Source: Pristiophorus japonicus
Lineage: Eukaryota
Direction: 5' to 3'
Assembly (NCBI RefSeq): GCF_044704955.1
Contig: NC_091994.1
Coordinates: 43,152,001 to 43,216,000, forward strand
DNA: 64,000 nucleotides
Positions 27,126 to 62,543 of this stretch are shown here, one piece after another. Every line of letters begins with the position of its first letter. The first letter of the stretch is position 1. A program made the translations under genes and the position numbers. The notes beneath the pieces were generated by a model. That model had not been told where the DNA came from, searched no databases, and was given only the letters and a program-made list of their open reading frames with translations.

Positions 27126-27336
27126 GTCGCCGAGAGCATGCAGAAATCAAGCGCAGGCAGCGGAAGGAGTGTGCGGCGAAGCAGGCTCCCCGCCCACCCT
27201 TTCCTTCAACCACTGTCTGTCCCACCTGTGACAGAGACTGTGGTTCTCGTATTGGACTGTACAGCCACCTAAGAACTCATGCTAAGAGTGGAAGCAAGTC
27301 TTCCTCGATTCCGAGGGACTGCCTATGATGATGATG
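27126..27336 (+). mobile_element. RTE-clade LINE 3' fragment with AAATC target-site duplication
   Basis: Similar to 15370-15560, with an (ATG)n tail. AAATC occurs at 27121-27125 and 27337-27341. Confidence 0.8.
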
Positions 27337-27727
27337 AAATCAGAAGAGATTGTGGAATGAAGAGGAAGTGGGTTGTGAGAAGCAGGATTAGGTATAAAGA
27401 TATCGTCATCTTCAATTGATTCAGCCCTGCTGCTGGCCACGAGCTCAGCAATATCCCCCAATAATGGTCAGCACCATCTCCTCTATCGGGGTAAGGTTAT
27501 GCAGGTGTCCCTGTGTCCCTTCAGGCAGTCCCTGCTTCCTCCTGTTGTGCGCCATCTTCTCCTGCAGGAAAGATGGAAATGTGTCGTGTAATCTGTTTGG
27601 GTGATGTGGCTGTCATGATTGAATAGCTGGCATTGTGTGCAAGTTGTGAGATGTAGGCATGAAGCTTGCAGCAGTGCTAAGTGTGTGTGGGTGTGAGAGT
27701 GAGGTGAAGTTCCGAATGTTAGATATA

Positions 27728-30700
27728 TGTTATATATGTGGACTTGTATTTACTCTGTACAGCCACCATAGGGCTCATTCCCCGGAATCCCAAGGGATCC
27801 CATAATCCCTTGGGAGCATAGGTATTTAAGAAGGCTTCGCAGGTTGGAGAGGCACTCTGGAGACCTGCAATAAAAGACTACGGTCACACTTTACTTTGAG
27901 CTCACAGTGTTCAGTCTGACTCTTTCTCCATACACAACAACTGGGAACGAGATACAGATAGCGAGCCCAAAGATGTAGAGAACAGTGGGCATCCTGGAGA
28001 AATTTTCAGAGGGAGATAATTGGGAAACTTTTGTGGAGCGACTCGACCAATACTTCGTGGCCAGATGGGGAAGAAAGTGCTGCCAAACGAAGGGCGATCC
28101 TCCTCACCGTCTATGGGGCACCAACGTCTGGCCTCATGAAAAATCTGCTCACTCCAGCAAAACCCACAGAGAAATCATACGATGATTTGTGCACACTGGT
28201 CCGAGAGCATTTGAACCTGAAGGAAAGCGTTCTGATGGTGAGGTACCAGTTCTGCACCTACAAAAGGTCTGAAGGCCAGGAAGTGGCGAGTTATGTCACC
28301 GCCTTGCAGGACATTGTGAATTTGAAGGACATTTGGAGCACATGCTCAGAGACTTTTTCATATTTGGCATTGGCCACGAAACCATGCTTCGCAAGCTTTT
28401 GACTGTAGAGACCTCAACCTTGAGTAAGGCCATAGCGATAGCCCAGGCATTCACTGCCACCAGTGACAATACAAAGCAAATCTCTCAGCACACAAGTTCG
28501 GCTACAAGTACTGTGAACAAAGTGATGTTGTTTTCGAATCGTAACGTACAGGGCAGGTCACACATACCTGCAGCTACATGTACGCAGATGTCTCAGAGTC
28601 CACCAACAAGGATGATGAATGCAAGGCCATTAACACCTTGTTGGCGCTGCGGGGGTGATCATCGTTTCCATTCATGCCGATTCAAAGGATACGTTTGCAA
28701 GGGCTGTGGAACAATGGGACACCTCCAACGAGTGTGCAGGCGAGCTGCTAAGCCTGTTAAACCTGCAAACCACCATGTTGCAGAGGAGGACACATCCATG
28801 GAGGATCACTATGAACCAGAGCCTCAGATAGAGGAGGCAGAGTTACATGGGGTGCACACATTCACCACGAATTGTCCCTCGATAATGCTGAATGTTGAAC
28901 TAAATGGACTCCTGGTGTCAATGGAGCTGGCCAGTCAATCGTGGGCAAAAAGACTTTCGAAAGGTTGTGGTGCAACAAGGCCTCAAGGCCAGTCTTAACT
29001 CCAGTTTGCATGAGACTAAGAACTTAGACTAAAGAACTGATTCCTGTAATCGGCAGTGCTACCGTAAAGGTCTCCTACGATGGAGCAGTGCACAAGCTAC
29101 CACTCTGGGTGGTACTGGGCGATGGCCCCACGCTGCTCGGCAGGAGCTGGCTGGGAAAGATACGCTGGAACTGGGACGACGTCCGAGCGCTATCGCCCGC
29201 TGACGACACTTCATGTGCCCAGGTCTTAAACAAATTTCCTTCGCTGTTTAGGAAATTCCAAGGAGCAAAAGTGCAGATCCACTTAATTCCGGGGGCGCGA
29301 CCCATCCATCACAAGGTGAGAGCAGTACCGTACATGATGAGAGAAAGGGTAGAAATCGAGCTAGACCGGCTGCAACGAGAGGGCATCATTTCACCGATCG
29401 AGTTCAGCGAATGGGCCAGTCCTATTGTCCCAGTCCTGAAGGGAGATGGCACCGTCAGAATCTGTGGCGATTACAAAGTAACTATCAATCGTTTCTCCCT
29501 GCAGGACCAATACCCACTATCAAAAGCCGACGACCTCTTTGCAACGCTGGCGGGAGGAAAGACGTTCATGAAGCTGGATCTGACTTCAGCCTACATGACA
29601 CAGGAACTGGAGGGATCGTCGAAGGCCCTCACCTGCATCAACACGCATAAAGGTCTTTTTGTTTATAACAGATGCCCGTTTGGAATCCGATCAGCGACAG
29701 CGATATTCCAGAGAAACATGGAAAGTTTATTGAAGTCGGTCCCGCACACCGTGGTCTTCCAGGACGACATCTTGGTCACAGGTCGGAACACAGTCGAGCA
29801 CCTGCAGAACCTGGAGGAGTTTCTTAGTCGACTCAACTGTGTGGGGCTGAGGTTAAAACACTCAAAGTGCATTTTCCTGGCACCTGAAGTGGAGTTCCTG
29901 GGAAGGAGGATTGCGGCGGATGGCATCAGGCCCACCAACTTGAAGACGGAAGCAATCAAGAACGCACCGAGGCCACAGAACGTGACGGAGCTGCGGTCAT
30001 TTCTGGGACTCTTGAACTGCTTTGGTAACTTCTTACCAGGTCTCAGCACCCTGCTAGAACCACTGCATGTCTTACTACGAAAAGGGAGCGAATGGGTTTG
30101 GGGCAAAAGCCAAGTAAATGCCTTTGTAAAAGCGAGAAAATTGTTATGCTCAAACAAATTGCTTGTGTTGGATGATCCATGTAAGCATATGGTACTAGCA
30201 TGTGATGCGTCGTCATATGGCGTCGGGTGTGTATGCAACAAGCTAATGATTTCGGGAAACTGCAACCGGTTGCTTATGCCTCCAAGAGTCTGTCTAAGGC
30301 TGAGAGAGCCTACAGCATGACTGAAAAAAAAGCGTTAGCTTGTGTCTATGGGGCAAAGAAAATGCATCAATACCTGTTTGGGCTAAAATTCGAATTGGAA
30401 AGTGACCATAAGCCACTTATATCCCTATTTTCCGAGAGTAAAGGGATAAATACCAATGCATCGGCCCGCATCCAGAGATGGGCGCTCACGTTGTCTGCAT
30501 GCAACTATGCCATTCTCCACAGGCCAAGCACAGAAAACTGCGCCAATGCTCTCAGTAGGCTGCCATTGCCCTCCACGTGGGTGGAAATGGCACAGCCCGC
30601 AGATCTAGCCATGGTTATGGAAGCAGTTGAGAGTGAGCAATCACCCGTCACTGCCTGGCAGATCAAAACTTGGACAAGCCAGGACCCCTTATTATCTCTA

Positions 30701-32253
30701 GTCAAAAGCTGTGTGCTTCACGGGAGCTGATCCAGTGTCCCAGTAGAAATGCAGGAAGAGATAAAACTGTTCCAGCGGCGCAAAGATGAAATGTCTATGC
30801 AGGCAGACTGCCTTCTGTGGGGCAATCGAATAGTGGTCCCCAAGAAGGGCAGAGACACCTTCATCAATGACCTCCACAGTACCCACCCAGGCGTCGTAAT
30901 GATGAAAGCGATAGCCAGATCCCACGTGTGGTGGCCCGGTATCGATGCAGATTTAGAGTCCTGCATTTACAGATGTAATACATGCTCGCAGTTAAGCAAT
31001 GTACCCAGGGAGGCACTGTTAAGTTCATGGGTCTTGGCCCTCCAAACTGTGGTCTAGGGTACACGTCAACTATGCAGGCCCGATCTTGGGTAAAATGTTC
31101 GTTGTGGTTGTAGACGTGTACTCCAAGTAGATTGAATGCGAGATAATGTCGGCTAGCACGTCTGCTGCCACCACTGAAAGCCTGTGGGCCATGTTTGCCA
31201 CACACGGCTTACCCGATGTCCTGGTGAGCGACAACAGGCCATGTTTTACCAGTGCTGAGTTCAAAGAATTCATGATCCGTAACGGGATCAAACATGTCAC
31301 ATCTGTCCCGTTTAACCCAGCATCCAATGGTCAGGCAGAGAAAGCAGTGCAAACCATTAAGCAAGGCTTGAAGAGGGTAACTGAAGGCTCACTGCAGACT
31401 TGCCTTCCCGAGTCCTGCTTAGCTACTGCACGAGACCACACTTACTCACTGGGATCCCACCTGCTGAACTGCTCATGAAAAGAACACTTAAGACAAGGCT
31501 CTCGTTAGTTCGCCCTGATCTACATGAACAGATAGAGAGCAGGCGACTTCAACAAAGTGCAGACCATGATAGCGCAAATGTGTCATGCGAGATTGAAGTT
31601 AATGATCCTGTATTTGTATTAAATTATGAACAAGGTCCCAAGTGGCTTCCCGGCACTGTCATGGCCAAAGAGGGGAGCAGGGTGTTTCGGGTCAAACTTT
31701 CAAATGGACTCATTCACCAGAAACACTTGGACCAAATCAAACTCAGATTCACGGACTACCCTGAGCAAGCCACCTGGGACCCTACCTTTTTTGATCCCCC
31801 AACACACACACCAGTGGAAACCGACACCACAGTTGACCACGAAGCAGAACCCATCATCCACAGCAGCCCTGCAGGGCCCAACACACCAGGCAGCCCAGCA
31901 AGGCCAACTGCACAGCAGCCCAGCGAGGGCCCAACAAATGATTCAACAACACCAGCTTTCACACCGAGACCAGGGCAAGAAGGGTCCCAGATCGACTCAC
32001 ATTGTAAATAGTTACACTATTGACTTTGGGGGGGGGAGCATTGTTATATATGTATACTTGTATTTACTCTGTACAGCCACCAGAGAGCTCATTCCCCGGA
32101 GTCCCAAGGGATCCCATAATCCCTTGGGAGCACAAGTATTTAAGAAGGCTTCACAGGTTGGAGAGGCACTCTGGAGACCTGCAATAAAAGACTACGGTCA
32201 CACTTTACTTTGAGCTCACAGTGTTCAGTCTGACTCTTTCTCCACACACAGCA
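27728..32253 (+). mobile_element. Full-length degenerate Ty3/Gypsy LTR retrotransposon
   Basis: 212-bp LTRs at 27728-27939 and 32042-32253 differ at about 10 positions and have TG...CA ends. There is a PBS-like ACTGGGAACGAG, a G-rich PPT and an imperfect 5-bp TSD (ATATA/GTATA). Gag has CCHC knuckles (CWRCGGDH, CKGCGTMGHLQRVC), followed by RT FQDD, RNase H and integrase. It is frameshifted and the protease DTG motif is deleted. Confidence 0.96.
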
Positions 32254-38356: not shown

Positions 38357-38446
38357 TATATAAACCCCAACCCAAACTCCAGTACAACACAGCTTGGTCT
38401 CGAGTGGTTCGTGTGGCTTCAGAAGAAACAGAGGTGTCTTTGTGAG
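38357..38446 (+). promoter_or_regulatory. TATA box and short non-coding first exon of gene B
   Basis: TATATAAA at 38357-38364 and a GTGAGT donor at 38447. The matching acceptor TTTTGCCCACAG ends at 39525, 54 nt before the ATG. Confidence 0.7.
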
Positions 38447-39579
38447 GTGAGTGCAGTATCGTTCATCTTACATCGACTGTACTCTAGTGAATGGTCTGAT
38501 ATTAATGTATAATTAATAGACTGAAATATCACTGGGTGGTTCAGCACTTTAACACAGCAAAGAAAATCTGTTTGATTGGGCGGAATGACTGCATCATAAC
38601 ATTGTACACGGTAATTAAATGTTGTGTAGGAAAGAAAACTAGATTGAAAAGTTTTAAACATTGGAATGGAGACATTAATGTAAAATAAATGGTTTAACAC
38701 AAGGGAAGCAGAAGAATATCATACAAACACATCCAGTGTTTTCCACTAAAATTACTGACAGTATTTTCTAAACTCAGATTTATTGTGAGGACAAATTCAG
38801 TGGGAACCACAGATTCGTGGGATCAATGTATTACTGACTGGGAACTTGGAGCTAGTCAAATCTGAAGCTACAGGCAGCTCTGTCCCACCCTGAATCTATC
38901 TTCAGGTTTCACACAGCCAGGAAACTTTACAATCCCTGCAAAGACATCTCCAGGACAATTTAAATCATTGGGAATAGGGAATTAAAGACTCCTATGTGTA
39001 ATGGAAGAGACTTTGAAAGTTTCATGAACTGTTATTCTTTGTATCCAAATGAATAATAATTGGTGTCAAATATTCATTGTACAATTATTAGTTGAAACAG
39101 TTTAAGGCTAAATCCTACCCCTTTGTCCCACTCTGGTATTCATCCCCAGCAGAGGGAGTAGGTAGCTGGTCTGATCTCAGCTCTTCTACCTGTTTACTCT
39201 GTGATTGCCATTAGGAGATGTACAAGGAGGGCTGTGTCCACTCACCCTGCCATTCTCCCCTGTCGCTACTGCTGTACAGCTCCTCCTCGATGGGACAGCA
39301 GGGATTGGGATCCTGCCCAGTGGGAATTGTCATGTAACAACGTGTAGAGCCTGCAGAATGGCTGCAATCACGTGCTGGAAAAGAATCTGAAAGGCAGAGG
39401 AAGCAGTGACAAGGTGACACAAAGAATCTGGGTTTGTTAACAAAGAATGTTAATAACGAGGGTAGGAACGTGAGATTATGGACTTGCATCATCTCTCCAC
39501 ATTCTTCTGAATCTTTTGCCCACAGCTTTTCACAAAGTCATCGACCCTGTGACACATTTGACGTGTGAGAGGCTTCAGC

Positions 39580-42500
39580 ATGGAGCTTTCCCTCTTTGTG
39601 ATGTGCATCCTGACTGTTGTCTCCATGGCGTCGGCTAACCCAATCATAGACGAGGAATGGGAAATCTGGAAGCAGTCTTATGCGAAGAGCTATCCTCGCG
39701 TGGTAAGAAATCTAGGCTGATGCTCTGGTAGAGCACTGAGGGACCATTGCATTGTTTGAGGGGGTCTATCGAAACTGTGGCCCCATCTGCCTGTTAATAT
39801 TGTTCAGTTGGATGTGAAGGATCCCACAGCAGTAATCGAAGAGCATGGTTTCCCTCAAATTGTCCTTCCGTGGTGGTTTAGAGATTTACTGCCAACCAGG
39901 GACATGGTGGCTGTTGGCCATTTATTTCAGTCACATCACTGGGGGTGCATGTCCGATTTATCCAACTCCTGCCTGACATACCATGATCTGCTTTAGCCAG
40001 TAATCCATTCCTTCTGTCTAATGTTCTGTGGGAAAGAAATACTGTGTAATCTCAAGCCTTGCTTCAGATGTATGCAGCTGTATTCATCTCTTAGTTGTTT
40101 TGCTCACAGTTTGCATCCTAGAGTTAATCATACTTTATCAAAATGAAGCATGAACCGTTGTCTTGCTACCCCTGCGGTTCTTTTTAATTCTTGCCAAAAT
40201 CATCTCTAGAAGCTCCTTTCATTCCTCCTTTCCTTTCTTTGCTCCTGATGTTTCAATGGCCAGCTCTGTCCCAGAGAGAAGTTTGATCGTTTGGTTCACT
40301 TTTCTTCTCCAAATCTAATTTTGATGATCCTGGTCATCATTCTCCTTCCTTTGCTACAATCTGTTCTACTGCTGTGGCTGACATCAAATGTAATTACACC
40401 TACTTGGATACTCAGTTGTCTTCACTCCTGGAGTAAACACACTGTTCATAACTTGGTCAACCGTACCTTCCTTTTACTTGTAGCCAACCAATAATATAGG
40501 GCATTGGGTGCCGCTAACAGCAAAGTGCAGTAACTCAATCTTCTTTGTGCAGGAAGAAGATCAGGCCAGGAGAGCAGTATGGCTGGAAAACCTGGTGAAG
40601 ATTGCAGCTCACAATGCTCAATATAGTCAAGGAAATTCAACGTATGAAATGTCCATGAATCAATTTGGAGACTTGGTGAGTGATGCAAATGTTACACGGT
40701 CAGAATTGCTGATTGGTACTGGACATGATGGAGAACAACATTAGATCATTTAACCAAACCTGTCTCTGGTTCACAGGACAAGAATATATCAGCTGGATTC
40801 ACTGCTATGGCCTGTGGTCCACTTGTCATTCCCAACTATGCAACTAATTTAAAGTGAGCAAAACATTCCCATGATCCATCAATCACCCAGCACCACCGCA
40901 TTCTCAGAGTAACTGGGGGTGGGCAATATGAGTAGCCTTGCCAGTGATACCCAAATCCTGAGAAAAAATATTTTTTACAAGGAACATGGAAATCTGAAAG
41001 AATACAGAATCAGAAAAGATTCTGTAATCCATCTGGCAGATCTGAAAATCTAATGTATCTCAATCACCCACTCACTCCCTCAAACATCGATCCAATTCTC
41101 TGTTAACCTTTTCTGCACTACCTGCCTCCACTGTCTTGGTGGGCAGTCTAATCCACACATTCACCTCCTCTGTGTAAAGTAGTTAAATCTCAACTGCCCG
41201 TGTATCTCTTTTCTCAGCTTGTGCCCAGATCTCCTTGTTCTGCAATCTGTGATTATCTCAAACATATTATTTGGATTTATTTATGTTTTCCCTCAAGGCT
41301 CTCAAGTACTTGAATAATATCTCCCCTGAGACTTCTCCCCTCCAGAGTAAAAAATCCCAGGCTTTTTAACTGACCTCATAACTTCAATATCTTAACCTAG
41401 ATATCAGTTTGTTTTCCCTTTTCTGCATTGCTTCCAGTACCTTGTTATTCTTGCTGCGATACTGCACCCAGAATTATGCATCAACACAGCTCCATTCACA
41501 ACCACACTTCACTTTCGCTGGTTTAGCCAATTGTCAATCCACCTCCGAAGCCTGCCTCGTATTTCATGCCTCCGTGTCTTGTGGACTAGTTTCTTTTGCG
41601 GCCCGGCGCCAAAAACCTTGCTTAAAATCAAAATATATCACCTCTGCAGAATTTCTGACGTCCGATTCCTCAAAGGACACCAGGAAACCTGATAGGCAAG
41701 ACCTTTCTGCCATAACTCCCCTTTCACTATTATATTTGTATATAATATCCTATTATATTTGTAGGAATGGTTGCATTTCTTGCAATATTTCCTATTATCC
41801 TAACCGCATTTCCTATTTTAGTTATTCTGACCAGTCTCCTAACCTCCTTTTACCTTCCTTTTATATGTATCTCAGTCTACTGTGTTGCCCATAGCTTTAT
41901 ACTTTAAGAACAATCTTTTGCCCATATTCTCCACAGTACTTCCTGCATCAGTCTTTCCCCTCTGTCACCCTCCATCTCTACTGGTATGTATCTCCTCACT
42001 GTTTCCTATTTCTAAGCATCATCCACTTCCATGTATTCTCCATTTAATTGTGCTCTCCAGTCCAGTACAGTTGATCCATTCCTCATCCCTTCAAAATCTC
42101 CCTTTTTAAGGATAAATGCTTCCACTGAATCGATCTGCCTTCGATCCTAAGCCGAACCTTAAACTATACCATGTTATAGTGACTTTTGCCACAGTATTCT
42201 TTTAACTCTGACCTGCTCTACCTAGTTATTATTTAATATCCAGTCCAACAATGCCACTGCCTACAGGAATTTATTGATCAATTGTTCCATGCAACAATCC
42301 AATTTTAAGTCCAGGATCAAACTTTCTCTCCTACAGCACCTTTTAAAGATTCACTAATCTCTTCCTGATAAAGTGATGTTATCCACAACACTGGCACCTG
42401 TTCCTATAGATGCCTCCCTTGTTGACTTCAAACTTCTTCATCCCATTCCCCCTCTTGACCTGGTCTACAGCAGATGCCAAGAGCTAGTCTCTTGTCCCTA

Positions 42501-45500
42501 TTCACAGGGGTTCCATCTCATACCCACACCTCGGCCAGAAAGATCTGTCTCTGTTATAATCCAATTGTCTTTCACATAAAACTTGGCTGCAAATTACAAA
42601 CAATGGAATGATATGGAGCTACAATTGCGTAAAGAAACTGATTTTGGCTTTGCATGTTTAGTAGAAATAGCTCTGCAGTAAGTATTATGCAACCATTTCT
42701 CCCAGACGCCCGTGGAGTTTGTTCAATTGTACACTGATGCAAGGATCTATGAAATGGCAAATTACATGGACGAGGCTTTGTTGGATGTTGAAGTGGAGGA
42801 ACTGGAAGAAGTGGAGGAAGTGGGTGCTCTTCCCAGAAGTGTGGACTGGAGTCAAACGGACCTTGTTGGAAAAGTACAGAACCAGGTACCGGCTACTTTC
42901 CACACTGTCTCTTCAATGCCTCAGTGCAGCACTGTTGAAACTTTTGTGTTTGTTGGGGCTGGAGAATGATTCCTGATGAATATTTTCACCCTGAGGATTG
43001 TTCAAGGCACTAATAACCCTTGGGGACCTCTAACTTTAAACATTTATAATCACCTTGGGGCCAAAATTGATGACCTTACCGCCCACTGCCGCCGACTGCG
43101 GCCGAGATCTGCCGACATTCCTCTCCGGGTTGCGCCCAGTGCCAGTTTGCACTTGGGCTGGAGTGGGCAGGAGGGGAGAAATGCCGGGAACCCCCGCTGA
43201 TGTCAGCGGATGGCCAAGTGGCGCAATTGACCTCCTGCCCACCGAGATGCCAGATTGGTGCGGGTGGGAGTCGGCGGGAGTCGGCGCCAGCAAGGGGAAG
43301 GACCTCCGCGAGGAGGCTGGTCTAACCCCCAAGGTAAGTTTAAAACACTGGAAAAAAAGGTCAGTGAACTTTTTAATAAAAATGTTTTCAAGCGACTTAC
43401 CTTAATGGGTCTTCCTTGACCCTGAAGGTATTCCGGGTAATTTATTTTCCCAATCATGTTTATTTGAACGTCTTCAACTTCATCCTCGGCGGCACTACGG
43501 CGGCAAGAAACTTTGTCGCCAGGATTGGGAGTTCCCGCCCGCTCCCGCCCAGTTTGACGGTGTATGTCGCTCGTTTGCTGCCAGCCCAACTTTTAAATTA
43601 TTTTTCAGCCATTTCCCGCACAAAATGCTGTCTGGTCTCTCAGCAACCATTGACGGCCTTTTGGGTGGGACTTGGCCTTCACCAGGTTTGGCCCCCACTT
43701 TGTTTGACAGAAGTTTGAGCTGTGGGAACGAGACAGCAGGAGGAAAGATTCAAGGGTGCAGTTCCCCCAAGAGACAGTAGGTAGATAATGAGGACAGCAG
43801 CAGGCAATTGGGTTATAAGTGTTCGTTCTTATCTGACACTTTAGGTGCCTGGCAAATGCTCAAGGGTCCAAAATAGAATAATCATAGCTGATTTACGTGG
43901 GCTTTTAGTGCTTTTAAATTATGGAATCACATGCTTGAAACAAACAGTGAAAAGGAGCAGCTTGTGTGAAGTGTACAATCTCGCCCGTCTGTGTCCAGAT
44001 TATAGAATCATAGAATCTTAGAAGTTTACAGCATGGAAGGAGGCCATTTAGGCCCATTGTGTCCATGCGATCCAAACATCATCTGTCCTATTGGTTACTT
44101 GTGAGAATTGTTCCAGGGGGCAAAGGTACCCAGATATTGATGTGAATTGAAACTAGGATCCAGGAGACCAGCTGAAGTTGGGCCTTGGGGTTTGGGACAA
44201 CAATGGGAGCCTGGACTCCCCTTTAACAGAAGCATGGTGTGGTTTGCCCAATGTCACCACGCTGCTGCACTTGAGAAAGCACAGAGGCGGCATGGATGGA
44301 AGCCATGCAGCCATTTACCCTCCTCGGCCACCACCACGTGTCCCTCCTCACCTGCACACTGTAACTCACTCGGTTCTTGCTTCTCAAGCTCATTGAAGCC
44401 TCGGAGATGTGTGTAGCTATGCTGCTGCCCACAAATGGTGAGAGGGACTGGGGAGCTGTGTGGTGCCACCTCAGCATGTGCTGTAGCTTGGACTCCTCAA
44501 AGTGAATGGATACACAGGTAAGGGCAGTTGTCTGGAATTCAATATTGTGCAGAACAGAGTTCATGTACTTTCTGTCCCTACGGGAGAGGTTCTTGGCATT
44601 CATGGTTGAGACAAAAGGGAAATCAATATCTTGCCTTTGAGCACTATTCGCTTTCAATCAAAGTGGTGATGATTGTGAAGAAAATGTTTGAACTTTTTGA
44701 CCATTGCCAACTGATCTGCTTTCCCGACAGGGCCCATGTCTGTCCTGCTATGCGTTTGGTGCAATTGGAGCTCTGGAAGGACAATTGGCCAAGAGAACGC
44801 AACAATACAAGGAACTGAGTGTACAAAACGTTATTGACTGTTCAGATAAATATAAAAATTATGGGTGCCAGGGAGGCATTCCATATCGTGCCTTCCAATA
44901 CATACGTGACAATGGCATTGAATCTAGTAAATCGTACCCCTACAAAGCAAAGGTACACTTACTGCCTGACTGTTCCCATTTCACACAGTTGAACGTGGCT
45001 GTCCATTATCAGTTCTGAAAGATATTCTGATTTAAGGCACAGCCCTCATTGGACTTTAAGGAACTGTGTTTACAGATGCTGCTGGTTTCTGAATGTCCTC
45101 ATGTATATTGGCAATCACATTACATTCTTCAACTCTGCAGTAGGAAGGTCTTTTATCCCTAAAGTGCATCAGTGGAATGAATTTTCCATTGTCCTTTCCC
45201 AAAAGCCCCACTCTCTCCCTAAGTGGTCATTTCTGAATGGTAACACCTTTCAATAATGCTCACTCTTTGATCATAGGTGGGAAAAGTCATCAGAAAACAC
45301 ACTCCTGCTGCATTTATAATCTCCATTTCTCCACTTCTGGTAGAAATGGCTGTAAAGATTAACTTGTTAATTGAACCGTTCTTCAAATATGAAACCTTGA
45401 TTGCGATTGGCCTCGAAACCATGGCTGGAATCACAGTTGTGTTTGAAACTTCCCTACTTAATGCCTATGGACAACGTCTTCCAGTGGGGTCATGGATAGA

Positions 45501-47958
45501 GATCAGGAGTTGAAACCCTGACCAAATTTTTCTCCTTATGCCAGGGGCACTTAAGTCAAATTGTAGTAGCTCCTAGTAACTACCCCAGCAGAGGTTCATT
45601 AACTCAGCACAGAGCAGAAATTAAACAGAGACCACTTAGCTGTGTACAGCGAAGTTGCTCAGTGAATAAGCAGCTGAACCATTGAGCAGTTGAGAGTTAG
45701 ATCATAGCAGGAGCAGGTTGGAGATTAGAGGAAGTGGCCAGATGGACTGTTGAAGATATAGGGGTTAAGGAGGCTTTTGAAGTGGAGAGGAATGTAGCAA
45801 GGCGAAGGATTTATATCGAGAGAGCCCGAGTGGGTGGATAGGCGTGTGGGGGCATTGTGTCCAGATGGGTCTGCCACTGATAGTAGAGTGGAGAGGACAG
45901 GGGAATGCACAGGAGACAAGAGTTGGAGGGTGTGATTAGGAATGTTAGGCCTAGAGGAGTTTGCAGAGTTTGGGATGAGCAAGACTGTGCTGAGACTTCA
46001 AGAAGAGGGCGAGGGTTTTGACATCGATGATAGTGGAGGACGGCAAGGGCTGGGGGGATGTGTGAGTGGGATTTTGTGTGTGACGGGATGTGGGTTTGAC
46101 AGTTTATGGAAATGATTATCTGTTGATTTGCTAAACAGATTTTATTTTTTTTAATAACAGAAAAACACAGAGTGCTTATTCAGTAGCTCTAAGAGTGTCA
46201 CCACAATTAAAGGATTCAGAAGGATTAAGCACTACGAGGACAAAAATTTAGCTGAAATGGTGGCAAGTGTTGGACCAATTGCTGTAATCATTCATTCATC
46301 ACATCCTTCCTGGATGTTTTACAAGTCAGGTAAAGAATATTCTAATCTTTTATTCTTTCACCATGGTTCAGATCCTACCTCGCAAACTCACTGTACAAGA
46401 CATCAATGTAAGAGCAACAATGGAGTTCCACTTCATCTCCAGAGGCAGGCTCTGCAGCCACTATACCCCTGCTCTCTGGAATTATCATCCGAAGCATCTG
46501 CACTTTACTATCTCTCTTCTCTTCTTTGGAATTCTTCATTGAGTTTGGCCTCGTTGACCATGCCTTCGGTTACCTTCCCTAACAACTTCCTGTTTGGTGT
46601 CCCTGGGCAATTTGCTTTGTGGGAGATGCTATATGAATGCAAAATCTTGTTGCTCTGTCCTTCACAATCTGACATAATGTTATTTCCGATGTGAGTTTGG
46701 AATTGTTTATGTCTACAGCTCCATCCTCCATTTTATAGGTATCTATGACAATGACGAATGCAACATCAAACATATTGACCATGTAGTGCTCTTGGTAGGG
46801 TATGTGGATCTGCATCCAAAAGGCTACTGGATCATTAAAAACAGGTAAATAATATCTACAGGTAAAGGACAGTCAGCCTTGCTGAAAAGCTTCAGAATCG
46901 CAGAGATTATACAGAGAGGGTGATGCCAAAGAATGCCTGGGCATCAGCTATATATTGATGAGGGAGGATTAAGGAACAGAGACTTCAGTTGACCTAGCTG
47001 AAGTTTTCAGGGGTATGAAAATGAGACAAATTGTGAACCAATGCAGTAAAATATATGATTGGACAAAATACTATTTTGGCAGCACGATTTTTTATTTCCC
47101 GTCGCACCTCGTATGGTAAATATAATGAGAATACATAACCCTGCTGCAGTGTGGTATATACTCACTGGCAACTTAGCAGTCCCTTAACTAACTGGTGCTT
47201 ATCTTTACCCTCACAAGCTGTATATGTTTGCTCCTTCACCTGGAGTATGTCAGCCTCACTTTGGCTGAGTAGAAAGTGTGAGCTCTTTGTCTCTCTGGCT
47301 GCCTCAGATTGACTTCCCAGGTAGAGAGGAGAGAGGCAAAAGCTAATCTTTGATCCTTCCTCAACTCTATGCATTGAATATTGCCCAGCTGCCAATCGAT
47401 GGTTCCACATTGAGTGAAACCCCACCCAGCCCCCTTCACATAATGTGGGAGCTCACTATATTGTCTGATTAGCTAAGTCCTCTGCTGCGTACATTGAATG
47501 ATAACCATCCTTGCATTAAGGGTACATACAAACTGCTACGGGATGTGCTCAAAGGATCCTCATTGTCTCACAGCTAATGTGGTATGCAAGAGTACACAAT
47601 TAAATTGGCTCTTTCATCTGTTGTTCCACCTAATTATCCTAATCACCTCTCGACATGGATTTGTACTTCTACAGAAGTAAACCCTTTGTAAACTGACCCA
47701 GCATTCTGTCGGTAACATCATCTAAATTAAACCAAAATCCATTCAAGCCACTTCAAAAAATATCAAATGTTACAAAGTAAATTTGCAAGGATCCTTAACA
47801 TGTTCACTTGGGATGTGACTAGACTGGGCTTAGATATTCACAAATATTCTTGCTTTTCCAGCTGGGGACCAAACTGGGGAGAGGACGGCTACATGCGGCT
47901 GATCAAGGGCAAGAACATGTGTGGGATTAACTACAGTGCTTCGTATCCTGTAATCTGA
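39580..47958 (+). CDS. Gene B: cathepsin L/K/S-like cysteine protease (peptidase C1A with I29 propeptide), 7 coding exons, 339 aa
   Basis: Coding exons are 39580-39702, 40553-40675, 42706-42885, 44731-44952, 46161-46329, 46739-46844 and 47862-47958. All are GT-AG and the frame is open. Motifs match gene A, with 3 amino-acid differences (E/V, M/V, K/N). Confidence 0.94.
43057..43696 (+). mobile_element. GC-rich MITE-like DNA transposon in intron 3 of gene B
   Basis: Short TIRs GGGGCCAAA...TTTGGCCCC. It is absent from gene A at 8336-8340, and a related copy lies at 59266-59915. Confidence 0.8.
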
Positions 47959-53000: not shown

Positions 53001-53710
53001 GAAAATGTGAGTGGTTTTGACCAGGTGATTCTAGAAAACTTTCTAGTGAGTCAGTGACTAGAGGGCATAAATTTAAGATCGTCTCCAATAGAACAAAGGC
53101 AGAGGCAAGGATAATTAATATTTATTTGTTTGTTTATTTATTTAATTATTATTTCTACGCAGTGAATTGTTAGGACATGAAATGCTCTGCCAGAACCAGT
53201 GGTGGAAGCAAAGTACGTAATAATTTTAAAAGGATAGCATTTTCAGAGAGTCAGCACAGGTGAATTGTAAAATTCAATAAAAGGCTATAGACTTGTGGTT
53301 CTAAGAAGCGTTCCATTGTACCTATATTGTGTTCCATGCAAACGAAACAACTGTACCCTAACATAGCAAGTCGTAAAGCTTCATTAAGTCATTTTTATTG
53401 CTTTTTCTTATGCATGTTATATAATACAATGGAAAGACATCAAAAGTAAAAGATTTTGACATGCAAACATTCAAAGTGCAAGAGGCCATTTCCCAACGGT
53501 GACTGGCAACACAGTAAATACATCATGTCATCACTTCACTCAAGAATCCGAATGAAATGTAATATTCATGAGGTGCAGTCACCAGGCGTTCACACTCAGC
53601 TACAGAAAAGATTTAGCCCACAGCCCCAGTCAAGCAATGCATTCTAGGCAGTTAAATGTTGGAGTTCTCCAGAATCTGGTTCTCCAGAGTGTTGGTCTTG
53701 TCTTTTGAAT

Positions 53711-56700
53711 TCACGCGACTATTGGGTAGTGGCAAAGGTGGGTAATGCCACACATGTTCTTGCCCATAATCATCTTCATGAAACCATCATTACCCCAGCT
53801 TTTTCCCCAGCTACAGAAAAAAAACCCAAGAATATTTGTCAATACCCAAAATAGGTCCTGTCACATCGAAAGTAAAGATGTGAAGAGTCATGCATGATTG
53901 CTTTGTTATAAAATTGAGACCTGCATATCCGAAAAGTGGTGGAATTCAAATCCCTCCCCATGGACTTGAGCCACCTCTACACCTGTCTCCACTCCATGTC
54001 CTACTTCACACTCTCGGCTCATCTGCCTCTCACCTCCTTCGCATCACAGCCTCCAATCTATTAAGTGACACTATCAGCTCTCTTGTCTGACCTTTGGGAA
54101 TCTGTTCCATAACCTCACTGTTTTGATTTTCCCTTTCCCACTTTCAGTACTTCTTTCTTCAACCACACTTTCAGTCACCTTCTCTAACCCTTCCACGCCA
54201 GCTTGGCATCCAATTTCCCTGAAGCATTTGGGAGTATTTTCTATATTAAAGGCTCCATGTAAGTGCAAGTTTCCTCTTTCCAAATGGAAACAAGCCCAAC
54301 TTCCTTCACTTTTCGTGGTGACAGAAGAACATAAGAACAGAAGAAATAGGAGCAGGAGTAGGCCATTTGGCCCCTCGAGCCTGCTCCGCCATTCAATAAG
54401 ATCATGACTGATCTGATCATGGACTCAGTTCCACTTCCCTGCCCACTCCCCATAACCCTTTACTCCCTTATCGTTCAAAAATCTGTCTATCTCCGCCTTA
54501 AATATATTCAATGACCCAGCCTCCACAGCTCTCTGGAGGAGAGAATTCCATAGATTTACAAACCTCTGAGAGAAGAAATTCTTCCTCATCTCAGCTTTAA
54601 ATGGGCAGCCCCTTATTCTGAGATTATGTCCTCTAGTTTTAGTTTCCCCTATGAGTGGAAACATCCTCTCTGCATCCACCTTGTCAAGACCGCTCATTAT
54701 CTTATATGTTTCAATAAGATCACCTCTCATTCTTCTGAATTCCAATGTGTATAGGACCAACCTACTCAACCTATCTTCATAAGTCAACCCCCTCATCTCC
54801 GGAATCAGCCTAGTGAACCTTCTCTGAACAGCCTCCAATGCAAGTATATCCTTCCTTAAATACGGAGCCTAAAACTGTACGTAGTACTCTAGTGTGGCCT
54901 CACCAATACCCTGTACAGTTGTAGCAGGACTTCTTTGCTTTTATACTTTAATCCCCCTTGCAATAAAGGCCAACATTCCATTTGCCTTCCTGATTACTTG
55001 CTGTACCTGCATAATAACTTTTATTATTTCATGCACAAGGACCCCCAGGTCTCTCTGTACTGCAGCACTTTGCAATTTTTCTCCATTTAAATTATAATTT
55101 GCTTTTCTATTTTTTCTGCCAAAGTGGATAACCTCACATTTTGCCACATTGTACTCCATCTGCCAAATTTTTTCCCACTCACTTAGCCTGTCTATATCCT
55201 TTTGTAGATTTTTTGTGTCCTCCTCACAATTTGCTTTCCCACCCATCTTTGTATCATCAGAAAACTTGGCAACATTATACTCGGTCCCTTCATCCAAGTC
55301 ATTAATATAAATTGTAAATAGTTGAGGCCCCAGCACTGATCCCTATGGCACCCCACTAGTTACTGTTTACCAATGACCCATTTTTCCCGACTCTCTGTTT
55401 TCTGTTAGTTAGCCATGCTAATATATTACCCCCAACCCCTTTTATCTTGTGCAGTAACCTTTTATGTGGCACCTTATCGAATGCCTTCTGAAAATCCAAA
55501 TACACCACATCCACTGGTTCCACCCTGCTCGTTACATCCTCAAAGACTCCAGCAAATTTGTCAAACATGATTTCCCTTTCATAAAACCATGCTGGCTCTG
55601 CTTGATTGAATTATGCTTTTCCAAATGTCCTGCTACTGCTTCCTTAATAACGCATTCCAGCATTTTCCCCACGACAGGTGTTAGGCTAACCGGTCTATAG
55701 TTTCCTGCTTTTTGTCTGCCTCCTTTTTTAAATAGGGGCGTTACATTTGCGGTTTTCCAATCCAGATGGGTGCCTTTCACCAGTTCAATTGCTAAAATCT
55801 TAGGTGTTCCCACTTGTTTGACTATTCTGCTGCAGTCTGTATCACTTACCTGTTTTTAATGATCCAATATTTTTCTGTAGCCTTATTCACATATCCCACT
55901 AATGTCGCAACATGGTTAGGTTTCTGGTTGCAATAAGGATCATCAAAGATATCTGTAAAGGATCTCAGTGTGAGGGCATCATTTCAAGCCCAAATTTCAG
56001 AGTTTAAAGGGATGATTAAGAAAAATCAGACAAGTAACATTGTTAACTAACATACATTTTACGCTGAAGTGCTTCTAAAAGGTGCGTTCATTCAATTTTA
56101 AATTCATCCAATTGTAAAATTATTTTTTCAAATTTAGAACTTAACTTTCCATTTAAAAAAAAAAATCACATTTACATAGTAACAATATTTAATCTTTTTC
56201 CATACCTGGTTGTGTCTGATGGGACAGTGTAGGGGGAGTTTTACTCTGCTTCTTGCAAATGCATTGACTAATGTGCTAACAGTGTGGTTACCTTTATCAC
56301 AATTTATATCAAATGATTTGCTCCGTCCGAGTGGAGACTGATAAACGGATCTCAGTGCAGTAGATTGCAAGATACGATCTGAACTGCAGAGAATAAAGAG
56401 CAGAGTAGAAATGACTTTACCTGTGCCTGTAAACTGCAAGAACGCTTCTGACATGAAAACAGAGACGGAAATTGGTCCATGTTTTGCCACTATCTTCATT
56501 ATTTCTGCCTCGGTCGTCCGTTTAAGTTCTCCGTAACCAATGAGCGAGCCAACAGAGTCTGCCAAAGTGAATGAGCAATCGCCCTTCTGCAGATTGGAGG
56601 GGAAGAGAAGCGTTTAAAAAAAATCAAATTAGCAGGATAATAATCTTACCTGTAAAGGACCTCAGTGTGAAGACATCATTTCAAGACCATTTATTCAATG

Positions 56701-59700
56701 AGGAGCTGAGCCATGCAGCCCAGGGATGCCCCAAACACGCTCCTTGATCTGCCATCAAGGTAGGAGCAGCAGTAGGAACACTACAGTTGGCCTCAGCACC
56801 TCTGGTTTAGGGCGGGGAGCAATAAGTCCAGGTTCCCACTCCTGATCACTATTGAGCGTGGCTATGAAGATCTCCAAAATCAAAGGGCCTACCCACACTC
56901 AGAGTCAAGGCTTTAAACATGGTGAATGGTCACTTGAGCAAGTAAGGACTTTCCATTGAGGCTTACTGAGGTAGTATTCCTGCCTCTGAGTGAGAAGGTG
57001 CAGGATTTGAACCCCACTTGGTGAGACAATCCCAGTGTGTGGAGATCAGAGCTCCGGCTCTGGATTCTGGGATGATATCCAGTGGGATGTTTGCATCTGG
57101 TGAGTGTGGGTGGCACACCGCCTTCCCCTCCACCCCACCCCGGTTATTGCATGGGTTGTGGGAGCCTGTAAAACCCTCTCGCCATATAGCACTAACCACC
57201 CTATCGGCTGGTATAAAGATGGTTACGGTCATAGAAGGATTGATCATGTCGAGGACTATCAGACTGTTAACCAGCCTGTGAATCGTTCCACTATTCGCCA
57301 AGGGAAGAGTACCAAGAAATAGAAACTGCCACAATCACTGAGTGGGTATTAATGAAATATGATTATAATTCAGAATTGATCACTGAGGGAGCGGTTCTGT
57401 TGGGGAAGGACATGGGAAATTCACTGTACCGATACACTATATTAACTAAGATATATCCCTACTGCTTATTTCAGAATGTAATTTATTTGGCACTATACAT
57501 GAGGATATTCAGCTCCTGTAAACACGGTTTGTTATAGTTAAATGAAGGCTGTGTCTTAAACCAGAATATCTTTCAGAACTGACAACGGATAGTCACGACC
57601 CACCATGTGAAATGGGAACAGTCAGACAGTAAGTATACCTTTGCCGTGTAGGGGTACATGCTGCTAGCTTCAATGCCATTGTCCCGTATATATTTATATG
57701 CGTGGTGCACCCACCCTGCATTGCACCCTTTATTTTTATAGCTGTGAGCACAGTCCACAAGGTTTTGCTCGCTGAGTGTGATGAGATTATTCGTGTTATT
57801 GAACAGTTGTCCTTCCAATGTCGCAGCTGCAGTAAACGCCCAGCAGGAGGCGCAGTGACCCTGATAACAAAGCAGATACATTGAAAATACCAACATATCA
57901 AAACTCTTTCTCTGGAATCTTAAGAAAGAAAGACTTGCATTTATATAGTGCCTTTCATAACCACAGGGCGCCCCAAAGGGCTTTGCAGCCAATTAAGTAC
58001 TTTTAAAGTGTAGTCACTGTTGTAATGTAGGAAAGGTGGCAGCCATTTTGCACACAGCAAGCTCCCACAAACAGCAATATGATAATGACTAGACAATCTG
58101 TTTTTCGTGATGTTGACTGAGAGATAAATATTGGCCAGGGTACCGGATATAACTCCCCTGCTCTTCTTTGAAGTAGTGTCATGGGATCTTTTACATCCAC
58201 CTGAGAAGGCAGATGGGGCCTCGGTTTAACATCTCATCTGAAAGTCAGAACCTTTATCTCTTTAACTGAAAACAAATAGTTTGAAAATATAGAATATTGA
58301 TTACCTATATGTGAATTTAATTATTCATATATCTGAATGACAAGAACCAATCCAGTAGACACATTCATTGCACACAGTCTGTTCCTCAAAATACTTAATT
58401 CTGGCCTACTCCCCTTACCTAGATATCTATACTATATTAACAGTCTTGCACATAGTGTGTACTTCTTGTTTCTCTTAACAATGGAAATCACATCCAACGG
58501 GATTGTGCCAGCAGCCTAACACTGACTATTTTTGATGGGTTTTTCAATCAGTTATAGGTGTAAGACGTTAAACTGACATATTGAAGTTGTGAATGAAATT
58601 GAGAAAAGTGATGGTCACCTGGTTCTTTACGTCGCTAACATAACCATTGACACGCCAATCCTTCTCATCTGGAATAGAAGTCAGCTCCTCCAGACCAGCA
58701 TCTGACAGAATCTGGTCCACATATTTGGGCATTTCATTTGAAATCTCCTTACTCAACAATTGCCCGAGCTCCTGGAATATCTGAGGGGAAAGTGATGCAC
58801 AATCAACAATGTATATTTCTATAAAGTTAAAACAAACCTCTTCAGAGAACCAACATCCATTCTATTAAACTGGTCTCATTATTCAGAGGAATTAGTTGCT
58901 CAGATTAAACTAGTTGAGGTTCACAATTTGAGCCCATGAACACACCAATGACCTGCACTGTCCCAGGAGCCACACACTGGGTACTTAGCCAGTCAAGAAT
59001 TAATATCTATTATGTCCAGTCATAAACATCCAATTCTCTCTCTCACCTGCTCTGCAAATTCATCGCCGGCCAGTTTAAATGTACATTTTCATTCTTTGTC
59101 CTGGGCAGCAATTAATCTCTTGTTTTCCACTCATATTTATATAAATAGAATGTATTCTACAGATTAAAATTGAGACCAATTTGCACATTTTGGGGAGGTG
59201 GAGATGCACATGGGCTCTTTTGCCCCTTAAAATTGGAAAGGACATTTTAAAATGTTGCTGATATAGAGGCCGAAATTGATGAAGGCCGAGGCCCGCCCAA
59301 GTGCTGCCCAAGGGACTGCTGATGGCCGCCGAGAAACCAGGCGATACTTTGCCAGGAAGATTCCGCCCGGCAGCCAAACAACGGCTTACTCCATCAATCT
59401 GGGCGGCAGTGGGCGGGAGCTCTCAATCTCGGCGGCAAAGGCTCTTGCCGCCCAAGTGTCACCGAGGATGGAGTCGGGCCCAGGGAGGGTGGAAGACCTG
59501 CAAATAAAAATCATAGGAAACAAAAAAAAAACACTGGAACACCTTCAGGTAAGTCTCTGTAAAAAAAACATTTTAAATATTTTCACTAACCTCTTTTTCC
59601 CTTATTTGTACCTATCGTCGGGGTTAGAACAGCCTCCACACAACGGTCCTTCCCCCTGCTGGCGCCGACTCCCACCGACTCCCACCGACTCCCACCGACT

Positions 59701-60479
59701 CCCCCGCCCACACCAATCTGGCATCTCAGCGGGCGGGAGGCCACTTGCACTACTTGGCAGCCAGAGGATGTCAGCGGGCGGTTCCCTGCAGTACTCCCCT
59801 CCCGCCCGCTCCAGCCCAAGTGGAAACTGGGAGAGAGAGGAAACCGGAGGCAAAACTCGGCGGCAGTTGGCGGCAGCAGGTGGCAGTGGGCGGTAAGGCC
59901 ACCAATATCGGGCCCTTAGAATCTTACAGCACAGAAGGAGGCCATTCAGCCCATCGTGCCTGTGCCAGCTCTTTGAAAGAGCTATCCAATTAGTCCCAAC
60001 CCCCTACTCTTGCCCCATGGTCCTGCAAATTTTCCTTTTCAAGTATATATCCAATTCCATTTTGAAATTTACAATTAATTCTGCTTCCACCACCTTTTCA
60101 GGTTGTGTATTCCAGATTACAAGAAGTCGCTGTGCAAAAGAAATTCTCCTAAGTTACCACTGATTCTGTTTCAGAGAACATTCTAAATTTAGAGACGCAC
60201 CATGACGCAGCATAGGTACAGGCTCTGCTCAACATTACTCCATGACTGGAGCAGATCTAAAACACACTTAGGTATCAAGCTCTGGAACCGCTGTCATGTG
60301 GAGCAGAATGAGAAATTTCCTTCTGTACGTTTCTTTTCTGGAGCTGGATTTCTTACCATACGAGAGTGGCCCTTCCCATAAGTTTTCTGCCAGGTTTCCT
60401 GATCACCCTGTCTTGTCGGGTCAGCCGAGGCCAGGGAGACAACTGTCATGATGCACGTCACAAAGAGAGAAAGCTCCAT
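53711..60479 (-). CDS. Gene C: divergent cathepsin L/K/S-like protease with intact catalytic exons and a destroyed propeptide exon 2 (291 aa if exon 2 is skipped, otherwise a pseudogene)
   Basis: Open GT-AG exons are 60479-60357, 58780-58619, 57860-57639, 56586-56421, 55952-55850 and 53810-53711. Motifs are [30 protein letters not shown] and YWIIKNSWG. AATAAA lies at 53399-53394. Confidence 0.78.
54327..55765 (-). mobile_element. CR1 LINE in the last intron of gene C
   Basis: RT ORF fragments 55532-55813, 55356-55568, 54941-55336 and 54425-54838, with a tail at 54327-54345. Confidence 0.92.
57921..58245 (-). mobile_element. Deu-domain SINE (SacSINE1-like) in intron 3 of gene C
   Basis: Contains GGGGCCTCGGTTTAACATCTCATC and CATGGGATCTTTTACATCCAC, with an AAAGAAAGACTTGCATTTATATAG tail. 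Confidence 0.75.
59047..59157 (-). pseudogene. Degenerate exon 2 (I29 propeptide core) of gene C
   Basis: Translates ...[28 protein letters not shown] then GTGAGA, aligning with [16 protein letters not shown]...[11 protein letters not shown] then GTGAG of genes A/B. It has three in-frame stops and is shortened. Confidence 0.8.
59266..59915 (-). mobile_element. GC-rich MITE-like DNA transposon, same family as 43057-43696
   Basis: The reverse complement begins GGGCCCGATATTGGTGGCCTTACCGCCCACTGCC versus GGGGCCAAAATTGATGACCTTACCGCCCACTGCC. The two share an internal GAGATGCCAGATTGGTG...GGGAGTCGG block. Confidence 0.78.
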
Positions 60480-61556
60480 GGTGAAGTGTCTAACGGATCA
60501 AACTTGAAAAGCTGTGGGCAGTAAAATAAGATGACTATGGAGAGATGATACAAGTCCATAATCTCACATTTTCCTACCCTCGTTATTCAGATACTCTGTT
60601 AACAAACCCATATTCTTTAAAAACCTAAACTCCAACAGATGGTGTCACCATGTCACTGCTTCCTCTGTCTTTCAGATTCTTTTCCAGTACGTGATTGCAG
60701 CCATTCTGCAGGCTCTACACATTGTTACATGACAGTTCCCACTGGGCAGGATCCCAATCCCTGCTGTCCCATCGAGGAGGAGCTGTACAGCAGTGGGCTG
60801 CTTCTCTGCTTAGGGACAGGGGAGAATGGCAGTGTGAGTGGACACAGCCGTCCTTGTACATCTCCTAATGGCAGTCACAGAGTAAAAAGACGACCTGCCG
60901 CTCAGCAGGGAAATAATATAATAACAGGGAAAAGAACAAGGAAATTACCGTAAAACAAATTATGGGCCTGAAATAGCAGCGACAATAAAAACTAGTAGGC
61001 CCGAGGTTGAATTTTCAACCTATGCTGAGCTAGCTGATCATAGTTGGGCTGCAAATAATTGCAAAGGAAAAGATAATTAAGACATAAATTAAAATAAAAA
61101 TCAAAAGTGATGTAAAATGGGCTTTTCCTTAATATGCAATCGTTGTAATAACTCCGAAAGGCTTCCCAACAAATGAAAGCAAAGGGCAGGGAGAGGCCAG
61201 TTGGTCCATTGAGTCTGTCCCATACTGTCGTGGTGTAACTCAAGCACACCATGGCCCCACCACCAGCCACGCAGTCTCCGAGGAGAGGCAGAAGAACAAA
61301 GGAAAAAAATAATTAGGAAAGATTCTGAGAAATTCCTCTCTAACCACTGAGGTTCCAGGAGAACATGGTGACTGGGTTGCACATCCTCCAACACCCACCT
61401 ATCTTCTGTGCGTAGTTATGTTGGCCAAACGCAGGACCTCGACCAGCTGCCTTTTGACTGCTTACAGTGAGGAATCCGCATTCACCACATGCAATTTGTT
61501 CCATAGATCAACAACTCTCTGTGAATAAAATTACCTCCCTGACATCTAACCTAGTA

Positions 61557-61874
61557 CAGGTTGAACCTCCCTTATCCAGAACTCCCCCCTTATCTGGCAC
61601 CACCCCTCGTCCGGCACCATTCCCGGCCACTGGGTGGCGCATGCACAGAACTCCGACATGAACAAATTGAAGTCCTTCCTCGCTGTCGCCTCCTGCAATC
61701 TGCTGGCCTAACCCCGCGATCTAACCCCCCCGATCTCTCTGCCACACTCCTAGCCCCAAGCCAGCCACCACCAATATCCCCTTGCTCAGTACCGTGACCT
61801 CCCCTCGTCCGGCAAAATCCCTTAACCAGCACAGGGCAGGTCCCGAAGGTGCCGGATAAGAGAGGTTCAAGCTG
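61557..61874. mobile_element. Tc1/mariner-superfamily (pogo/Tigger-like) MITE
   Basis: TIRs CAGGTTGAACCTCCCTTATCC and GGATAAGAGAGGTTCAAGCTG, flanked by TA on both sides. Confidence 0.82.
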
Positions 61875-62454
61875 TACTGTGCTTACCTAACTCATACCCA
61901 TGTCCCCTGATCCTCCCTAGCCCATCTAACTCCAATAACGTAGCCACATCGACTGACTCTAATCCTTTCATTGTTTTAAAGAGTATTCGAAATCTGGAAC
62001 GATTGTTTTGCTGTTACATTTTCAGGGACTGCAGAGTTCGCTGGCCGTGTGAAACCTGAGGGCGGTCTCAGAATGCTGTAGACCTGTCTGTAACTTCAGA
62101 TCTGAGTTATTCAGAGCTCAGTTCCCAAATCAGTACTATACTGCCCACAGAAATCAGAAGCAAACTACGACTCCCACTGAATTTGCACTGACAACACTGT
62201 CAATATTGTTGTTTTCAGTCCGACTTTACCATACCACAGTGTGATACAAGCCCTTACTGAGTTCATTTCAAGTTTCTTTGTCCGTTACTTAAATGGAAGC
62301 ATTCCCATATATGGGTTAACATTGCCATTAAAAGTTGTTACTGATGTGCTCGCATTTGAGAGAAGTAATTTTAGATGATTATTTCTATGTTAATATCAGA
62401 CCACACAACAGGCTTCTGCTTGGTTCCAATGAAGAAAAACAACATCGAACTCAC

Positions 62455-62543
62455 CTTGTGAAGATCTTGCTTGCACGACCAACCAAGTCACTTGAGACTG
62501 AGTTGTTCTGTGTTGGAGCTGCTGTTTGGAGTTGAGTTATATA
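62455..62543 (-). promoter_or_regulatory. TATA box and non-coding first exon of gene C
   Basis: TATATAA at 62543-62537 and an AAG then GTGAGT donor at 62454-62449. The acceptor GCCCACAG ends at 60512. The layout is the same as in genes A and B. Confidence 0.62.

Follow-up and report, generated by a model that had tools for sequence, protein, structure and literature searches.

A shark and skate clade of cathepsin L-like genes without the I29 propeptide exon, and its likely working member in Pristiophorus japonicus

The propeptide of cathepsin L-type enzymes, a stretch of ~100 residues that includes the I29 domain, has been described as both the inhibitor and the folding chaperone of the protease (PMC7720491, PMC4842899). 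Can such an enzyme remain in use when an exon that encodes this propeptide has decayed? The question is raised by gene C, one of three cathepsin L-like genes (A, B and C) in a 64-kb stretch of the Pristiophorus japonicus genome (contig NC_091994.1, positions 43,152,001 to 43,216,000), which we call the window. A first-pass annotation made from the DNA had read C as a functional enzyme with a minimal prodomain and not as a pseudogene; I29-less orthologs in 11 other species, intact catalytic residues and the grouping of these genes in one old clade support that reading and widen its scope, in that the loss of I29 appears old and common to sharks and skates, not limited to this genome. In our view C belongs to a cathepsin L-like clade of sharks and skates without the I29 exon, and its product is likely to be a working protease, able to fold with no I29 and inhibiting itself only weakly. 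The parts of this claim differ in strength: that C encodes a functional protein without I29 seems highly probable, that this protein would be an active protease a little less sure, and that it would fold without a partner's propeptide the least secure of the three, and still probable.

An open catalytic frame around a decayed exon

All splice sites of gene C are GT-AG, exons 3-7 (753 nt) are open, and the intron phases are the same as in I29-bearing genes. Exon 2 is of phase 0-0, and joining exon 1 to exon 3 keeps the frame, as the first-pass annotation had held, giving a predicted product of 291 residues with a single terminal stop that equals database protein P0001 letter for letter. The other features on which that annotation had relied are likewise present: the catalytic residues Gln95, Cys101, His238 and Asn258 (papain Gln19, Cys25, His159 and Asn175), the six disulfide cysteines (98, 132, 141, 173, 232 and 279), and a TATA-like box, a non-coding exon and a poly(A) signal, all of which could be located (Table 1). 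P0001 matches PF00112 with 220 bits over residues 77-289, and of the 62 columns in which 131 other cathepsins show a conservation of 90% or more, C keeps 51 (correlation of column conservation, rho 0.53). In structure prediction the mature domain takes up a cathepsin L/S fold, with a predicted local distance difference test score (pLDDT) of 96-99 over residues 81-290 and, against cathepsin S, a Z score of 35.6 and an rmsd (root-mean-square deviation) of 1.3 Å over 216 residues. In a simulation of neutral decay under assumed mutation and indel rates (2000 runs per level), a frame of this kind stayed open in 31%, 6%, 0.7% and 0% of runs at 0.02, 0.05, 0.1 and 0.2 changes per site.

The exon that would carry the ERFNIN/GNFD part of I29 is broken. 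Its DNA still aligns to exon 2 of gene B with a score of 84, as compared with a mean of 55.2 (standard deviation 4.6, maximum 75) over 200 shuffles, and it has stops at 3 of 37 codons, whereas none of the 250 codons of exons 3-7 is a stop (Fisher p 0.002). The three stops that the first-pass annotation counted hold for the homologous frame, which starts at 59157; since the usable AG ends at that very position, a remnant that was spliced in would be 110 nt long and would bring one stop and a frameshift. The loss of aromatics that it noted in the propeptide half of exon 1 is borne out by alignment, 2 of 4 being gone from the first propeptide helix. A protein profile built from 72 exon-2 segments did not detect the remnant (best of 22 other targets, 1.9 bits; B exon 2, 74.9 bits) and found no match in the C protein or its introns, PF08246 (the ERFNIN helix/I29) is absent from P0001, and the GNFD motif is absent from the C protein, with a degenerate trace of it in the broken remnant only. 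Between exons 1 and 3, a search for a substitute exon (open, in frame, 60-180 nt long and bounded by standard sites) returned 0 candidates. In the assembly, in which the locus of the window is a single place, an I29 exon lies within 9 kb upstream at 16 of the 17 full exon-4 loci, C being the sole exception.

The remnant has nonetheless kept an AG and a near-consensus donor, and residues 1-30 of the Chiloscyllium plagiosum protein P0008 form an open stretch that resembles remnant 59047-59157 (score 42, reached by 0 of 2000 shuffles, for a pair picked post hoc), which suggests that the exon-2 remnant persists in a distant shark.

I29-less orthologs in sharks and skates

Searches with exon 4, the whole protein and a profile, in which the absence of I29 was rechecked by profile, identified annotated orthologs without Pfam I29 in 11 other shark and skate species: Heptranchias, Heterodontus, two Scyliorhinus, Stegostoma, Rhincodon, two Chiloscyllium and three skates. 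These differ from C at 36-46% of protein positions. The signal peptide is joined straight to exon-3 sequence in 9 of the 11; the remaining two, P0008 (C. plagiosum), which has no signal peptide, and P0004 (Heterodontus), whose N-terminus is aberrant, are for those reasons uninformative about the junction. The same junction occurs in two GenBank models of separate annotation (P0016 and P0271). Among the best 150 matches of a search against 50% representatives, there was no new I29-less member besides P0008 and P0004, unnamed short matches not being checked singly. In addition, a Logan contig of 955 nt encodes a skate member, 177 aa long, that spans three exon junctions and stops short of the exon 1-3 junction, which suggests that this contig is a spliced transcript.

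To place these genes, we built a tree of 43 proteins from exons 4-7 alone, which keeps the prosegment from shaping the result; it has a midpoint root and includes no chimaera and no further own-genome paralogs. In it, the 12 I29-less rows make up one group (support 100/99), seven A/B-type rows form another (100/99), and the two are sisters (99/98) that, with this root and no verified cathepsin K or chimaera row, lie outside the tetrapod L and teleost S groups. Because each group holds both sharks and skates, the duplication that separated A/B from C predates the shark-ray split; as no holocephalan sequence is among the named matches listed, the age of the A/B-C split is bounded from below only. 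The sister relationship, the remnant and the shared intron phases together point to the descent of C from an I29-bearing cathepsin L-like gene. A single early loss of I29 would be the simplest reading of the tree, parallel losses being the alternative.

On one account C is a pseudogene or an annotation artefact, its transcripts including the remnant and decaying, or else pipelines having missed a divergent exon 2 in species after species. The surviving splice signals, the start of P0008 and a substitution comparison between paralogs that does not separate the remnant from the mature exons (see below) would all suit it; against it, the catalytic domain is open in twelve species, the same pipelines do call exon 2 in the neighbouring sister gene, a second annotation set yields the same junction, and the clade has invariant residues of its own. 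We give this account a very slim chance.

A protein could also be made and selected without being much of a protease, as a weak or non-proteolytic cathepsin homologue that serves in binding or as a decoy and needs no inhibitor for just that reason. Papain Gly23 has become Ala in 10 of 11 members, Gly65 Ala in 4 of 11 and Trp177, which is Trp in 131 of 131 other cathepsins, Phe in 6 of 11, all near the active site; the third disulfide is gone, as a pair and, by count, never singly, in four of the 11; and the stem branch of the I29-less clade is long (0.46). Across sharks and skates, however, all 11 of the 11 aligned members have the Gln, Cys, His and Asn of catalysis unchanged, and Trp177 and all three disulfides are still present in gene C, so that we regard this possibility, too, as remote, if marginally less so than that of a pseudogene. 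Both third-disulfide cysteines are lost, and Phe stands at papain Trp177, in the carpet-shark proteins P0007, P0008, P0010 and P0022.

What remains of the propeptide and what may stand in for it

By alignment, exon 3 starts at residue 67 of the human procathepsin L propeptide. Set against the strand reported to anchor on the prosegment-binding loop (PMC3551606) and the residues reported to enter the cleft (PMC7720491), this start places the ERFNIN helix and the anchoring strand, which are the scaffold and anchor of the propeptide, in exon 2, and the helix and strand over the cleft in exon 3 (the cleft residues being mapped by a ten-residue offset). Removal of the first two helices from the human cathepsin L propeptide is cited as causing a >33,000-fold loss of inhibition (PMC7720491).

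How much prosegment is left varies within the clade. Assuming, without prediction, a signal peptide of 19 residues, it comprises 57 residues in gene C, 46 in Heptranchias, 37-38 in the catsharks, 32 in three carpet sharks and 14 in three skates, as compared with 101-104 in the A/B-type sister clade. Sharks share a patch at the start of exon 3 that is probably not neutral, since Gln44, Gln48 and Leu49 are kept in 7 of 7, and in most members an acidic patch directly precedes the mature N-terminus. The skate proteins begin just after the position of an in-frame CAG codon in C exon 3 (58712-58714), which suggests an internal exon 3 acceptor in skates. The phrase 'constitutively active', which the first-pass annotation had offered as one option for C, fits the skate forms better than gene C, because sharks keep a diverged copy of the exon 3 cleft helix and strand.

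The I29-less proteins also differ from their sisters in where they would be glycosylated. An N-glycosylation sequon stands at papain position 40 in 11 of 12 I29-less proteins (Asn116 in gene C), in 0 of 6 A/B-type and in 4 of 131 others, whereas a pro-region sequon is found in 6 of 6 A/B-type proteins (one of them in exon 2) vs 1 of 11 I29-less; the propeptide sequon was lost together with exon 2. Such a glycan could serve lectin-assisted folding and mannose-6-phosphate sorting. As this shift is a single evolutionary event, we treat it as a lead and not as a correlation, and the idea that the Asn116 glycan is what compensates for the loss of I29 is tentative, held at rather less than even confidence.

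A different way of coping with the loss would be for a functional C to borrow the I29 propeptide of A/B in trans, both for folding and for inhibition. Propeptides of the cathepsin L-like subfamily inhibit related enzymes in trans (PMC2682653), and the aromatic residue that touches propeptide Phe56 (Tyr151 in cathepsin L; PMC3551606) is retained as Phe. C adjoins its I29-bearing sister gene here, C-type and A/B-type records lie on a common contig in seven other species (with near-consecutive accessions in four), and an intronic tract of 231 nt that is shared by C, A and B, and present at these three places only, could give shared expression. Linkage, however, follows from tandem origin. The tract (identity 96% for C/B, 95% for C/A and 97% for A/B) fits conversion, because C is about as close to A/B as A and B are to each other despite a synonymous divergence of ~0.8; the 5' region upstream of it is 56-84% identical per 50-column block. 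It is probably the result of gene conversion from A/B or a shared regulatory element, and conversion may explain why exon 1 of C is longer than in most orthologs. In 6 of 11 members, Phe has replaced the Trp against which the GNFD Phe packs (PMC2682653), and the very acidic A/B-type propeptides (-13 to -19) accompany mature domains that are basic, whereas 7 of 11 C-type mature domains have a net charge of 0 or below. Overall, borrowing in trans strikes us as improbable, although it is the best placed of the three alternatives.

We considered, and dropped, an argument against trans binding based on erosion of the prosegment-binding loop. Just before Tyr146, a polar residue stands in 10 of 10 parsed clade members (1 unparsed) and Phe in 6 of 6 A/B-type proteins; among the others, however, 30 of 115 parsed (16 unparsed) have a polar residue there as well, the alignment register is ambiguous, and one clade amounts to one event.

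Several points weigh against the view that C is a working protease that folds without I29. P0001 probably stems from the same assembly and hence lends no independent support, the exon 1-3 junction of C rests on gene models, and the ortholog evidence consists throughout of annotated proteins, so that an exon 2 may have been overlooked in some species. The clade deviates at 21 of the 62 conserved columns, and the clade-wide changes near the active site described above could lower activity. The dN/dS ratio (nonsynonymous to synonymous substitution) between C and B is 0.61 in the mature domain (pN/pS 95% interval 0.57-0.92) and 0.64 in the remnant, and is about 1 both for exon 5 and for the part of exon 3 that belongs to the mature domain; the test proposed in the first-pass annotation, run here between paralogs, is therefore uninformative, as values this similar do not tell mature exons and remnant apart. 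The prosegment-binding loop is not clearly destroyed, Heterodontus has no mature-domain sequon, and the proregion has been reported as necessary for the folding of mammalian cathepsin L (PMC7720491, PMC4842899). The leftover C prosegment is not confidently placed in the model, where residues 21-70 have a pLDDT of 55-70, compared with 93-98 for the B propeptide (residues 21-100) in a control model from the same 148-sequence set, although most rows of that alignment carry I29, which favours B and may itself explain the low values.

Taking these points into account, the reading that we prefer, a protease that folds without I29, can be set out as a sequence of events. A tandem duplication before the shark-ray split would have given rise to A/B and C, after which C would have dropped its phase 0-0 exon 2. 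With exon 1 spliced to exon 3, the signal peptide would direct entry into the endoplasmic reticulum, where folding, and then sorting, would rest on the Asn116 glycan and on the short acidic stretch before the mature N-terminus, the only piece of the prosegment retained in skates. In sharks, the leftover third helix might act as a loose, tethered shield and confer weak latency; in skates, where this helix is lost, the enzyme would be barely latent. Control would then be exerted mainly via compartment, pH and inhibitors such as cystatins. A bolder version, which we think unlikely as a whole, would have this elasmobranch cathepsin L-type enzyme no longer a true zymogen: the propeptide would have been stripped stepwise (exon 2 skipped, exon 1 cut to the signal peptide, skate exon 3 entered at an internal acceptor), with the mature-domain N-glycan taking over folding and sorting, and the skate form would be active once folded, its ~14 remaining residues being too few to reach the cleft.

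Genomic setting and known relatives

Genes A and B are 92-94% identical, and their coordinate-joined proteins match database proteins P0021 and P0017 letter for letter. No stand-alone I29 exon and no further cathepsin was found in the window plus 20 kb on each side. Twelve further cathepsin L-like loci lie on the same contig (G000:C18:48.3-49.9 Mb and 51.7 Mb), with an I29 exon at each. At G000:C18:48.43 Mb, a further candidate for I29 decay was considered and rejected, the flagged stop lying at the acceptor end of an exon that is open. Intron 3 of gene A (7830-8286, minus strand) holds an incomplete copy of exon 4 (181 nt), frameshifted and with its acceptor intact, and a piece of intron 4; the copy could be a poison exon in A. 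Retroelement fragments of long terminal repeat type (reverse transcriptase, RNase H, integrase) and of LINE type (long interspersed nuclear element) occupy the spacers, C intron 6 and the flanks, and no other host genes were detected in the 44 of 139 long open reading frames scanned. The A/B clade is itself odd, with papain Gly23 changed to Leu or Ser in 6 of 6 members and Trp26 to Tyr in 5 of 6. P0150, an A/B-type isoform model (X2, 281 aa) from C. punctatum, skips exon 3, not exon 2, and joins the I29 exon to a catalytic exon.

Table 1. Features of the three cathepsin L-like genes and their surroundings, in window coordinates unless a locus prefix is given.
Feature	Position	Strand	Remarks
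Gene A	3482-11999	-	recent inverted duplicate of B; intact I29; 339 aa
Gene B	39580-47958	+	sister-clade cathepsin; intact I29 (exon 2 = 40553-40675); 339 aa
Gene C	53711-60479 (coding span)	-	291 aa with exon 2 skipped
C TATA-like box	62537-62543	-	placed as in gene B; function putative
C non-coding first exon	62455-62510 (5' end approximate)	-	GT donor 62454; homologous to B 38390-38447
C exon 1	60357-60511 (coding from 60479)	-	predicted signal peptide and decayed first propeptide helix
C exon 2 remnant	59047-59156	-	ERFNIN/GNFD part of I29; AG and GT persist; 110 nt, frameshift if spliced in
C exon 3	58619-58780	-	residual prosegment (residues 42-76) and mature domain start
C exon 4	57639-57860	-	catalytic Cys101 (57843-57845); sequon Asn116 (57792-57800)
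C exon 5	56421-56586	-	first part of prosegment-binding loop
C exon 6	55850-55952	-	catalytic His238 (55912-55914) and Asn258 (55852-55854)
C exon 7, coding part and stop codon	53711-53810	-	
First AATAAA past C stop	53394-53399	-	
Shared intronic tract, 231 nt, in C	60612-60889	-	
Shared intronic tract in B	39190-39420	+	
Shared intronic tract in A	12159-12389	-	
Retroelement fragments	24264-30727; 819-1742; 54327-55855; L003:1625-8113; L005		

By predicted fold and catalytic residues, C would be a C1A protease derived from the cathepsin L lineage that shows neither the ERFNIN nor the GNFD signature. It resembles human cathepsins L, V, K and S in its mature fold (Z 35, rmsd 1.0-1.4 Å, 40-45% identity), catalytic residues, three disulfides and signal peptide, and it has the exon layout of its I29-bearing neighbours. 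Unlike the cathepsin L-like (ERFNIN) subfamily, the clade has no ERFNIN helix or GNFD strand, its prosegment is ~14-57 residues long vs ~100, and it has a sequon at mature position 40. Among vertebrate C1A enzymes, cathepsin X/Z likewise has a prodomain that is short (38 residues; PMC13257197), but that prodomain is tied to the active site by a disulfide and accompanied by a His-Ile-Pro insertion, whereas the C prosegment has no Cys and there is no insertion after Gln95; cathepsin X is moreover an ancient separate lineage (PMC10380794), while C descends, as argued above, from an I29-bearing gene. Falcipain-2 provides a precedent for folding without a prodomain (PMC2682653, PMC4842899), although falcipain-2 and -3 retain a full ERFNIN/GNFD inhibitory domain and resemble C only in the length of a short N-terminal extension. 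The mirror case is provided by crammer and CTLA-2, which are I29 without a catalytic domain, so that the two domains are separable (PMC3551606).

In the literature searched, outside which lie most subscription journals and all supplements, the clade is undescribed and nothing was found under six ortholog accessions; public records of its members are labelled just 'procathepsin L-like' or 'cathepsin J-like'. A gene named ctsl2 in the cloudy catshark, which is cathepsin L-like, falls outside the L1, K and S clades and is highly expressed in yolk-sac haematopoietic cells (PMC8923501), is a candidate ortholog, but it may be any of the many shark paralogs.

Together with the intact sister gene that lies next to it as a control, the clade constitutes a natural deletion series of the propeptide (~104, 57, 46, 38, 32 and 14 residues). 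Two questions thereby become directly testable: which requirements a papain-fold domain has for folding when I29 is absent, and by what means a cell copes with a cathepsin that hardly inhibits itself. The series could also guide the production of cathepsins without a propeptide.

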